IMG/VR virus record: IMGVR_UViG_2585427751_000001 | Direction: 5' to 3' (one strand) | From: a virus | Lineage: Duplodnaviria; Heunggongvirae; Uroviricota; Caudoviricetes | DNA length: 17,049 bases | Part shown: one piece after another, positions 12,001 through 17,049 of the stretch | Layout of the letters: the number at the start of each line of letters is the position of its first letter | Numbering within the stretch: the first letter of the stretch is position 1 | Program-made: the position numbers

Positions 12001-15000
12001 GGATGTTTGTCTGTGCTGGGGGTAAGACTGGAGATGGACGACTGGCTGCTAAAAAAGTAAAAAATGATTAGTGCGGTCCGCAAAAAGTATGTCAGTATGT
12101 TAAGAGTGGTTACTTCGCCACACAGCTTAAACCCGCCGCGAGCGGGTTTTTTTATGGCTGAAATCGGTCCAGTACAGTAAACGTGCTGGTGGCGGTGAAT
12201 ACCTGTCTTTCAGCTTGCTGGCTTTTTCGACAAGAGTTATTGGTGTGTCACGTTAACCGGAAAAGGGAAAAAGACATGCTAAAACAGCAGGATATGACAG
12301 AAACCGCCAGAGTGGTGTTTAATGAATTAAGCGTTAACGACCCGGCGACAGTCGGGGAGATTGCGCAGAATACTTACCTTTCACGCGAACGCTGCCAGTT
12401 AATACTGACCCAGCTGGTTATGGCGGGTCTGGCAGACTATCAGTTCGGTTGTTACAGACGCCTTCCGCAGTGAAGGCTTTTTTATTTGTGGTAAATGGGC
12501 GGCTGGTGGGTGTTAGGGGCACCCACCAGCCATCTGCTCATGCGTTGGGTTCACAAGCAAACCTCAGGCCCACTGCTTTGCGCAAAAGCAGAATGAGCCT
12601 ATCAGAGACAGGCTTAATGATCCATGCTTAATACTGTAAAAATATCCAGTTGTGAGTTAATCAACGCCGACTGCCTGGAATTTATCCGGTCGTTACCCGA
12701 AAATTCTGTTGACCTGATAGTCACGGACCCGCCGTACTTTAAAGTGAAGCCTGAGGGCTGGGATAACCAGTGGAAGGGCGACGATGATTACCTGAAGTGG
12801 CTGGACCAGTGTCTGGCGCAGTTCTGGCGGGTGCTGAAACCTGCCGGAAGTCTTTACCTGTTCTGTGGTCATCGCCTGGCATCTGATATCGAAATCATGA
12901 TGCGTGAACGCTTCAGTGTGCTGAACCATATTATCTGGGCGAAGCCGTCCGGACGCTGGAACGGATGCAACAAGGAAAGCCTGCGGGCGTATTTCCCCGC
13001 CACAGAGCGCATTCTGTTCGCGGAACATTATCAGGGGCCGTACCGCCCGAAAGATGATGGCTATGAGGCGAAGGGCAGGGTACTGAAACAGCATGTGATG
13101 GCCCCGCTGATTGCTTACTTTCGTGATGCGCGAGCTGCCCTGGGGATAACGGCAAAACAGATTGCAGATGCCACAGGAAAGAAAAACATGGTGTCGCACT
13201 GGTTCAGTGCCAGTCAGTGGCAGCTACCGAACGAAAGCGATTATCTGAAATTACAGTCGCTGTTTGCCCGGGTGGCAGAAGAGAAACATCAGCGCGGTGA
13301 ACTGGAAAAGCCCCACCACCAGCTGGTGGATACGTATACGTCACTGAACCGGCAGTATGTGGAGCTGCAGAGTGAATATAAGCATCTGCGGCGGTATTTT
13401 GGTGTGACGGCGCAGGTGCCGTACACGGATGTGTGGACACATAAACCGGTGCAGTTCTATCCCGGGAAACATCCGTGCGAAAAACCGGCAGAAATGCTGC
13501 AGCAGATAATCAGCGCGAGCAGTCGTCCGGGTGACCTGGTTGCAGATTTTTTTATGGGCTCAGGTTCAACGGTAAAAGCGGCACTGGCGCTCGGGCGTCG
13601 TGCGATTGGCGTTGAACTGGAGACCGGACGTTTTGAGCAGACAGTCAGGGAAGTTCAGGATTTAATCGTTTGAAACGGATGAGATTGCAGAATTAATTAC
13701 GCACCATTATTATTCTGCTCCCGGCCCTTTAGCTCAGTGGTGAGAGCGAGCGACTCATAATCGCCAGGTCGCTGGTTCAAATCCAGCAAGGGCCACCATC
13801 ACATACCGCCATTAGCTCATCAGGAAAGAGCGCCAGCCTTCGAAGCTGGTTGCGCGGAGTTCGGGTCCCCGAAGGCGGTTCATTATCTGTATCCTGCGTT
13901 GTTAGCTCAGCCGGACAGAGCAATTGCCTTCTAAGCAATCGGTCACTGGTTCGAATCCAGTACAACGCGCCACACTTATTTTCCCTAGCTCGCTTTTGCG
14001 GGCCTTTTTTTTAAATGTCTCACAATTCAGACGGTTGACAGTTGTCTGTTTTGCGGGGAGTTTGTTAAAAGAAACTGGCATGGTGAATCCCCCTGTGCGG
14101 AGGGGCAATCAGCGAGTAGGTATATGGGATAATCGCGGATTCAGGTGCTGGTACTGAATTCACCGGGAGGCACCCGGCACCATGCAATGGCACATAGCGC
14201 CACTCTCCAGCCCCTCTCCGGAGGGGCTTTCTTATGGACAAAAAAGCCCGCGCAGGGAGACGCGGGCGGCAAGGAATAAACAACAAAACGTGAAGTAATA
14301 TTTCAGCTGGCGAATAATATCCGACAGTAATCACTCTGCGCAATAGTGCGGCCTTTTTCGTATTGCGGGCTGTTGTCTCTCTTCTGCCATTGTCCTGTAA
14401 CTTCCGGACTTCAGCCCGCTCCTCATTTTACTCACAATATTATCCCGGCCGGGAGGATTCATGGCATTTAAACACTATGATGTTGTCAGGGCGGCGTCGC
14501 CGTCAGACCTTGCGGAAAAGCTGACACACAAACTGAAAGAGGGCTGGCAGCCATATGGCGGACCGGTTGCCATTACGCCGTACACACTGATGCAGGCGGT
14601 GGCTATTGAAGGAGATCCACAGGTCGGCCCTTCATCTGAGCCGGACTGGTTCTACGTGGTTGTGCTTGCCGGACAGTCCAACGGCATGGCCTACGGTGAA
14701 GGGCTTCCGTTACCGGATTCTTACGATGCTCCGGATCCGCGCATTAAACAGCTGGCGCGCCGCAGCACGGTAACTCCGGGTGGAGAGAGTTGTACGTATA
14801 ACGACATCATCCCGGCTGACCACTGTCTGCATGATGTGCAGGATATGAGTACGCTGAATCATCCGAAGGCAGACCTGAGCAAATGCCGCATGGTATCCGC
14901 TGCATTACAGCCAGTGTGTTGAGCGACCTTATTAACCATGCGCGGTATTGTCGCCGTATCCCCGCATTAACAGAGACCGCAGCCCGACCGGGAGACTCCT

Positions 15001-17049
15001 CTGCGCGAGTGTGCGGGGATAATCAAAAACGATACACACCGGGGTTTACCGCGTTAACGGAGCGCGGCGTTGTCCCCTCATGGTCGCTGGTCCGGTGCGA
15101 TGGTGGAAGAAACCGGACGATGTGTTACCTCGCAAGCTCTGTTATGTCATGTGTCTGATTTGTGATTTAAGTCGGATAATTGTCGTTGCCATTAAGCAGA
15201 GGATTGATGACCGACAGGGTGGCATTGTTAGAATAAGACTTATTCTTATCTGTGCCGGGAATGAAAATGAAAAGAAACCTTCCGTTAATTATTTTGTTGT
15301 CTTCTCTGGTTATGGGCTGTACGCAACATAAAACAGATATGCCCCGACAGTTGGTTAAGGCATTACCACAATATCCGGCCTATGCAGCGGCAAATTATAT
15401 AAAGGGACGGGTTGATGTGAAGTTTGATATTGGTGCTGATGGTACTGTCACCCGAATTGAGTTTATCCGTTCAGAGCCGCACCATTTGTTTGATGAGCAG
15501 GTTGTAAAGGCGATGGCAAAATGGCGATTTGAGAAGGACAGGCCGTGTAAAGGCGTGAAGAAAACGTTTATCTTTAGTCCTTCTGCACCCTGATTATTTC
15601 ATCAGAAATTAATTATCACTCTGTTGTTATTCTGTACATCCCGGCAGGGTAAGTCTTGTTCCGTCGGATATGAAGATGAAATATTGTTGGAGGACAGTGG
15701 GTACCTGCTCCTGTAACCGAACGTTCATTTCTCGTTATTTTTCATGCTGGCCGGGCGCAGATGCGTTGCATCTGTTGCCAGCCTTCTCCTGCAGGCTTCA
15801 ATAACCCACGCTGAAAAGTTTCCTGAACCTTTCAGATCAAGAGCGATGTTAATTTGTTCAATCATCTGGTTTGGAAATCGGATGTTGCGGGTTGTTGTTC
15901 TGCGGGTTCTGTTCTTTGATGACATAATGTTTTCCCATATTCAGTGTTGCTGATTTGTATTATCTGAAGTTGCTTTTACGTTAATTTGACGCAGATCAAT
16001 TAATACGATACCTGCGTCATAATTGATTATTTCTCGTGGTTTGATGGCGTACACACATGTTGTGATAAACCTTATATAGATGATAATCATTATCATTTCG
16101 TGGGTCCTTTCCGGCGATCCGACCGGTTACGGGGCGGCGACCTCGCGGGTTTTCGCTATTTATGAAAATTTTCCGGTTTAAGGCGTTTCCGTTCTTCTTC
16201 GTCGTAACTTAATGTTTTTATTTAAAATACCCCCTGAAAAGAAAGGAAGCGACAGGTGCTGAAAACGAACTTTTGGGCCTCTGTCGTTTCCTTTCTCTGT
16301 TTTGGGCCGTGGAATGAACAATGAAAGTCAACAAAAAGCAGCTGGCTGACATTTTCGGTGCGAGTATCCGTACCATTCAGAACTGGCAGGAGCAGGGAAT
16401 GCCCGTTCTGCGAGGCGGTGGCAAGGGTAATGAGGTGCTTTATGACTCTGCCGCCGTTATAAAATGGTATGCCGAAAGGGATGCTGAAATTGAGAACGAA
16501 AAGCTGCGCCGGGAAGTTGAAGAACTGCGGCAGGCCAGCGAGACAGATCTCCAGCCAGGGACTATTGAGTACGAACGCCATCGACTTACGCGTGCGCAGG
16601 CCGACGCACAGGAACTGAAGAATGCCAGAGACTCAGCTGAAGTGGTGGAAACCGCATTCTGTACTTTCGTGCTGTCGCGGATCGCAGGTGAAATTGCCAG
16701 TATTCTCGACGGGATCCCCCTGTCGGTGCAGCGGCGTTTTCCGGAACTGGAAAACCGACATGTTGATTTCCTGAAACGGGATATCATCAAAGCCATGAAC
16801 AAAGCAGCCGCGCTGGATGAACTGATACCGGGGTTGCTGAGTGAATATATCGAACAGTCAGGTTAACAGGCTGCGGCATTTTGTCCGCGCCGGGCTTCGC
16901 TCACTGTTCAGGCCGGAGCCACAGACCGCCGTTGAATGGGCGGATGCTAATTACTATCTCCCGAAAGAATCCGCATACCAGGAAGGGCGCTGGGAAACAC
17001 TGCCCTTTCAGCGGGCCATCATGAATGCGATGGGCAGCGACTACATCCG

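Follow-up and report, generated by a model that had tools for sequence, protein, structure and literature searches.

Probable loss of the lysis cassette of a lambdoid Escherichia coli prophage by a deletion at a three-nucleotide microhomology

Introduction

In lambda-type lysis the holin permeabilises the inner membrane, the endolysin degrades the cell wall, and the spanin disrupts the outer membrane. A spanin alone cannot lyse the cell without holin and endolysin. Here we describe a stretch of DNA of 17,049 bp (IMG/VR record IMGVR_UViG_2585427751_000001; the whole stretch is called the window in the following) in which this set of genes is missing. It represents the complete draft contig JOQJ01000065.1 of the assembly GCA_000714025.1 of Escherichia coli 5-172-05_S3_C1, and judged from its gene content it carries a mosaic lambdoid prophage of commensal E. 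coli that extends from bet/gam through Nu1/A.

The decay of prophages by deletion is well known (e.g., PMC6379469). In E. coli O157 Sakai the full lysis gene set is present in all 11 of the 11 lambdoid prophages, the defective ones included, and where such a prophage is defective in head formation or packaging, co-resident prophages complement the defect (PMC2669165). The lysis module of DLP12, essD/rrrD/rzpD, is also kept; PMC7918800 belongs to the literature on this module. In the late region of Stx phages the normal order is Q, (stx), nanS-p and the pinholin gene S (PMC10462455).

The prophage of the window resembles these cryptic or "grounded" E. coli prophages (the Sakai Sp pool and DLP12, Rac and Qin of K-12) in that it seems to have been inactivated by deletion while many genes are intact. 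However, the Sakai prophages and DLP12 keep the lysis module, whereas here this module is lost and the genes for regulation, replication, Q and the start of packaging look intact within the window. Compared to the late region of Stx phages (Q, methylase, ileZ-argN-argO, (stx), nanS-p, S21-type pinholin, SAR endolysin, Rz/Rz1), the order is the same through the STnc100-like RNA and the start of nanS-p, with 99% identity, but stx is absent, nanS-p breaks off at codon 141, and the DNA from there to the 3' end of the open reading frame (ORF) that follows Rz is missing.

Results

The original prediction, made from the sequence of the window, stated that there is no lysis cassette between Q and cos, and several searches bore this out. 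The proteins S, R, Rz, Rz1 and Bor of lambda and the S21-type holins, lysozymes and Rz proteins of four relatives served as tblastn queries against the whole window in six frames. These 17 kb yielded no homolog of a holin, endolysin or spanin, the best chance-level match having an E value of 0.012 over 13 residues, and the only matches above chance were the N-terminus of an esterase, the last 14 residues of an ORF of 74 amino acids (aa), and a lipoprotein. Pfam and PHROGs comparisons revealed no holin or endolysin family among ten ORFs of the interval and ten further window ORFs without a confident function, and a Kyte-Doolittle scan found no ORF of at least 25 aa with two hydrophobic segments in the region 12061-16320. 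A lysis gene is present neither in the interval nor in the remainder of the 17 kb. The holin-endolysin-spanin cassette of lambdoid genomes is absent between Q and cos.

A comparison with intact relatives, which had been proposed as a means to delimit a deletion, placed the breakpoints at 14881-14883. Up to base 14883 the window shares 99-99.8% identity with a prophage whose genes are ordered as in L002, a prophage of strain 700462 (99.8% with L002 itself for 13600-14883; blastn). From 14881 to 16176 it shares 99.4% identity with L001, which resides as a prophage in strain CB6837 (blastn). In a three-way alignment the two parents overlap only in the AAA at 14881-14883, and past this junction each parent is unrelated to the window. 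The block from Q to nanS-p is of the L002 type, the lipoprotein block of the L001 type. In L002 the tRNAs are followed by a nanS-p gene for an esterase of 618 aa, Phage_holin_2_1 (the P21 holin S family), DUF1327, Phage_lysozyme and Phage_lysis (Rz). The order in L001 is esterase, DUF1378, DUF826, holin, a DUF1327 pseudogene, a minus-strand ORF, lysozyme, Rz, the 74-aa ORF, TonB_C lipoprotein, YlcI and terminase, and in phage JLK-2012 (L013) it is yjhS, S, R, Rz, two ORFs, TonB-like and YlcI-like. In both L001 and L002, the Rz gene contains an embedded Rz1. In all intact relatives examined (L001, L002, L013), the genes for holin, endolysin and Rz/Rz1 are located between the two breakpoints.

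The homologies meet at the AAA, and the intact relatives have the cassette in between, in agreement with the original proposal that a single deletion took the lysis genes and, with them, the 3' part of nanS-p. Very probably, one deletion of about 3.7-4.4 kb, formed by illegitimate recombination at the 3-nucleotide microhomology AAA, removed both. The missing DNA amounts to about 4.4 kb when measured on L001 (about 1570-6000) and to about 3.7 kb with a left part of the L002 type; the size is given as a range because no single ancestor with both flanks was found. The recombination would have joined codon 141 of nanS-p to codon 62 of the 74-aa ORF. It would have removed the rest of nanS-p, three quarters of the gene, with the larger part of the SASA catalytic domain and the C-terminal region for carbohydrate binding, as well as the genes for an S21-type pinholin, a SAR/T4-type lysozyme and the Rz/Rz1 spanin, including the small accessory ORFs between them. 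By chance the join would have been in frame and would have generated a DUF1737 protein of 153 aa.

An ORF of this length is indeed present at 14461..14922 (+). Its residues 1-141 show 100% identity with the N-terminus of the 618-aa SASA/DUF6645 esterase of L002 (tblastn), for which Pfam reports DUF1737 at aa 3-49, SASA at aa 66-262 and DUF6645 at aa 468-577. In the 153-aa ORF, DUF1737 is the sole Pfam match (PF08410, E 1.4e-16, aa 3-49), and matches to SASA and DUF6645 are absent. The earlier observation that a nanS-p-like ORF ends after 153 aa inside the esterase domain was therefore correct, since the homology stops at aa 141 and SASA spans 66-262. However, the ORF does not simply stop; on the alignments it reads as a fusion in which codons 1-140 of nanS-p are continued in frame by a Lys codon common to both genes and by the final 12 codons of the 74-aa ORF. 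Residues 61-74 of the latter, which is annotated as hypothetical in L001 (5818-6042), are matched in the same frame of the window (tblastn), and the product ends at its natural stop. The join is in frame because both offsets (14881-14461 = 420 and 6001-5818 = 183) are divisible by 3.

The domain layout of NanS-p has been described, and its C-terminal region is a probable carbohydrate-binding module (PMC10462455). The domain content, DUF1737 without a complete SASA domain and without the C-terminal region, identifies the 153-aa ORF as a cut remnant and not as a functional member of the NanS-p family. The fusion protein should not have esterase activity, because, although the GQSN block is kept, the rest of SASA and the C-terminal region are lost. 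A PADLOC scan yielded no match for the fusion protein or for the lipoprotein encoded downstream.

The junction is not confined to one contig. Seven contigs encode precisely this protein of 153 aa; they belong to two NCBI assembly groups, to a Logan assembly (SRR35602545) and to two metagenome assemblies of ENA. Five of the contigs could be read; along their length they match the window with 100% identity, and each contains the 41-mer that spans the junction. The named isolates with the junction are the strains 5-172-05_S3_C1 and 4-203-08_S4_C3. The junction 41-mer had no match in the GTDB representative genomes or in the JGI metagenome contigs. Two matches to a junction 20-mer, in Pedobacter and Nonlabens, were taken as chance. 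One match in IMG/VR, an uncultivated virus genome (UViG) of 17,000 bp, is probably the contig of the same or a sibling isolate, and was not counted as independent evidence of packaging.

Discussion

Several observations weigh against a deletion of the lysis genes within one prophage. A megablast search of 5,426 complete E. coli genomes retrieved no record that covers at least 80% of 13600-16320 or of the whole window. A single ancestor with both flanks at more than 99% identity and an intact cassette was thus not among them, and the best left and right relatives are different prophages, so that both the precise length of the lost segment and its content are inferred. In addition, the window is one draft contig, and it is even likely that the strain has a lysis cassette at another place. 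Lastly, two PHROGs families with matches between the junction and cos carry a label that refers to lysis. The first of these observations, an L002 type on the left, an L001 type on the right and no intact mosaic ancestor, would also fit a recombination between two directly oriented prophages or sister chromosomes, by which a larger chromosomal segment was removed or rearranged. However, lambdoid prophages are routinely mosaic, both genes at the junction are co-oriented at positions expected for one late operon, and both outer parts of the window correspond to a single backbone type, in which their order is the same and their spacing similar. This backbone is the DLP12-like prophage L004, which matches 1-7440 (98% identity), 10008-11723 and 15791-17049. 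Such an exchange between prophages is therefore improbable, and this copy would be without lysis genes regardless. Because both ends of the window match the single backbone L004, the simplest reading is that the mixture of L002 and L001 blocks reflects ordinary lambdoid mosaicism, and that the deletion occurred inside one prophage. The different best matches of the two halves might also be taken to indicate a chimeric contig that joins two prophages, each with its own lysis cassette, all the more as this is a short-read draft contig and the strain likely holds several similar lambdoid prophages. But the parental overlap of 3 nucleotides is far below any assembler k-mer, which makes a mis-join in the assembly graph implausible, and the identical junction emerged from different pipelines (NCBI, Logan, and ENA contigs with SPAdes-style NODE names) and from isolates as well as metagenomes. 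A chimera is thus scarcely credible. An assembly artefact in general is very unlikely, because an overlap of 3 nucleotides cannot mislead an assembler and the same junction is found in at least five separately assembled contigs.

The PHROGs labels lead to the question whether the prophage is lysis-defective at all, or whether it has kept a non-canonical lysis function in the TonB_C lipoprotein or in an unrecognised small membrane ORF. The families phrog_1267, to which the lipoprotein belongs (E 7.7e-43), and phrog_6954, a family of short spacer ORFs (E 1.3e-13), are both labelled "Rz-like spanin", and an ORF of 83 aa (15080-15331) and one of 51 aa (15941-16096, minus strand) each have one hydrophobic segment. 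We judge the labels to be unsupported from the sequence, and as evidence of lysis they were rejected for the lipoprotein and for the ORFs 14883-15158 and 15080-15331, because the same DNA coexists with complete Rz/Rz1 genes in intact relatives. The lipoprotein, the spacer and the small ORFs are nearly base-identical in relatives with complete holin, lysozyme and Rz/Rz1 genes, and hence they are not replacements. The original prediction had regarded the region 14923-15266 as short unrelated frames; this view has to be revised, as it is not debris but the normal spacer of about 345 bp, which is 99.7% identical in the intact L001 and has the same stop-riddled frames there. In part it is also common to L002, L004 and L013, 3' of their Rz genes. 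Even the apparent frameshift between the ORFs 14883-15158 and 15080-15331 is present in L001. The lipoprotein has a TonB_C signature, lacks a C-terminal membrane segment, contains 8% proline compared to 25% in mature lambda Rz1, and has no adjacent i-spanin; tblastn detected no Rz partner for it within the window. It is therefore predicted to be a moron rather than a spanin, which would be expected to have an Rz partner or a C-terminal transmembrane segment. Since, moreover, a spanin is not sufficient for lysis, we regard a retained lysis function as highly improbable. The label of phrog_1267 looks like an annotation error.

With holin, endolysin and spanin all lost, the prophage on its own probably cannot burst its host or release virions, and the designation "lysis-defective", which the original prediction had also used, is a sound inference from the sequence for this prophage alone. 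Late transcription and DNA packaging may still work, because Q with the region that directly follows it, cos and the terminase genes are kept, and because no terminator-like site was found on the plus strand between 14352 and 15885. Any release of virions would then rely on the lysis proteins of co-resident prophages or on rescue by recombination. Other lambdoid prophages of the strain could supply lysis in trans, in analogy to the complementation among the Sakai prophages, and because they could do so the phenotype of the lysogen is not predictable from this contig. For annotation this means that the prophage should be scored as lysis-defective and its nanS-p as a pseudogene fusion, and that a release of phage or of late-gene products from this prophage would depend on other prophages.

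The loss described here is ordinary prophage decay. It is somewhat less usual that specifically the lysis module is affected, but no new mechanism has to be invoked. L004, the relative of DLP12, keeps its lysis module. The junction offers a clean, base-resolved example of a microhomology-mediated deletion of one functional module of a lambdoid prophage. A second case is found in L003, a prophage remnant of E. coli STECUZB006, which has the same module order; there, too, the TonB_C lipoprotein gene follows the tRNA/STnc100 region without nanS-p and the lysis cassette in between. The deletion lies at 7347-7462 of L003, equivalent to 14376-14893 of the window. It represents an independent event, as its left end is upstream of the nanS-p start and its junction sequence is different, and L003 is far more degraded, with truncated Q and methylase genes and without head genes. 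Both deletions end within the 3'-terminal part of the 74-aa ORF and spare the TonB_C lipoprotein gene and the spacer upstream of it, and their right ends (14893 for L003 and 14881 for the window) are 12 bp apart. This closeness could be a coincidence; 24 bp of a target of about 600 bp correspond to a chance of about 4%, with only two deletions compared. That the loss of nanS-p and lysis genes is a recurrent, selected step of domestication, or marks a deletion-prone site, and is not a one-off accident, seems unlikely to us at present. If it were true, the prophage could persist in a helper-dependent manner, replicating and packaging its DNA with release via co-resident prophages, or alternatively as a safe carrier of immunity and moron genes.

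Further features of the window

The features of the interval from Q to the terminase genes are compiled in Table 1. The original prediction had listed the methylase, the tRNAs, the cut esterase, the lipoprotein and a small minus-strand ORF, all of which were recovered; it had omitted the match to the STnc100 family of small RNAs (sRNAs), which ends at a hairpin at 14209-14228. A terminator-like hairpin is located at 12129-12149, just downstream of Q, and a lambda-like cos sequence upstream of Nu1 was read directly from the sequence. The first tRNA, with a CAU anticodon (13723-13798, +), is classified as tRNA-Met by ARAGORN, but is annotated as tRNA-Ile in RefSeq relatives (the ileZ type of the tRNA clusters of Stx phages).

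Table 1. Features between the late antiterminator gene and the terminase genes; positions refer to the window.
Feature	Position	Strand	Evidence
Late antiterminator Q (21/82 type), left edge of the interval	11665..12060	+	Pfam Phage_antitermQ, E 1.6e-52
65-aa ORF	between Q and methylase		
N6/N4 DNA methyltransferase	12624..13673	+	Pfam N6_N4_Mtase; PADLOC MTase_II, E 2.8e-167
Cluster of three tRNAs: CAU, Arg-UCG, Arg-UCU	13723..13972	+	ARAGORN; Rfam tRNA; L002 annotation
STnc100-family sRNA match, between tRNAs and nanS-p	14049..14239	+	Rfam RF02076, full-length, 139 bits vs gathering score 47
nanS-p 5' remnant, codons 1-140: DUF1737 and first ~75 residues of SASA including GQSN	14461..14880	+	100% identity to L002 esterase; Pfam map
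Probable deletion junction, AAA microhomology	14881..14883	+	Three-way alignment; blastn ends 14883 (L002) and 14881 (L001)
Last 12 codons and stop of 74-aa hypothetical ORF (normally after Rz), fused in frame to nanS-p	14884..14922	+	L001 5818-6042; tblastn
Conserved spacer without credible gene, normally between 74-aa ORF and lipoprotein gene	14923..15266	+	99.7% identity to L001 6043-6386
TonB_C-domain lipoprotein, 108 aa, lipobox LVMGC	15267..15593	+	Pfam TonB_C, E 1.3e-14; 100% identity to L001 protein
YlcI/YnfO (DUF3950) small protein, usual cos neighbour	15725..15925	-	Pfam DUF3950, E 4.8e-19; L001 and L002 annotation
Terminase small subunit Nu1, right edge of the interval	16321..16866	+	Pfam Phage_Nu1

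The window as a whole has a lambda-type gene order. On the left, bet, gam and kil are followed by a pair of DUF3037 and HipA-like genes, a cI-type repressor gene, a cro-like gene, YdaT, O, P and ren. The middle part comprises an Arc-like module, a gene for a Bro-N/P22_AR_C protein, the nin genes ybcN, ninE, ybcO, rusA and ylcG, and Q. The right part continues with the 65-aa ORF, the methylase, the three tRNAs, the cut esterase, the TonB_C lipoprotein, YlcI, cos, Nu1 and the start of A. The Pfam families RecT, Gam, Peptidase_S24, Phage_rep_O, Phage_lambda_P, NinE, RusA, Phage_antitermQ and Phage_Nu1 are found in this order, and Kil and Ren were identified by PHROGs. The element is not a phage satellite of the phage-inducible chromosomal island (PICI) type or the P4-like type, because it has the whole early region of a lambdoid phage as well as Q, cos and terminase genes, and because the mapped deletion explains the missing cassette. 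In NCBI, the proteins of the window are named from E. coli 5-172-05_S3_C1 and from sibling or related isolates, e.g., 4-203-08_S4_C3.

Two regions with a low GC content were noted. The genes for the DUF3037 protein and the HipA-like kinase (2156-3807, minus strand, GC content about 35%) are located between kil and the repressor gene. They show weak PADLOC matches to the candidate defence families PDC-M66B and PDC-M03A (E 2.6e-8 and 1e-6), and this module may be a defence or toxin moron of the prophage. The region 7538-8511 is an AT-rich insert (GC content 32% at 7501-8000), which stands in place of the emrE/recombinase segment of the otherwise similar L004. On its minus strand it encodes an Arc/FitA-like ribbon-helix-helix protein (7936-8283) and an uncharacterised ORF of 117-132 aa (7538-7936), and these are followed by a divergent Arc-like ORF of 52 aa (8353-8511, +) and then by the Bro-N/P22_AR_C antirepressor-like gene.

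Contigs from two different assemblies (among them the one designated L008) both stop exactly at base 17049, within the gene for the large terminase subunit. This suggests a repeat boundary that is common to other prophages in these strains, and hints that the strains carry more than one lambdoid prophage.

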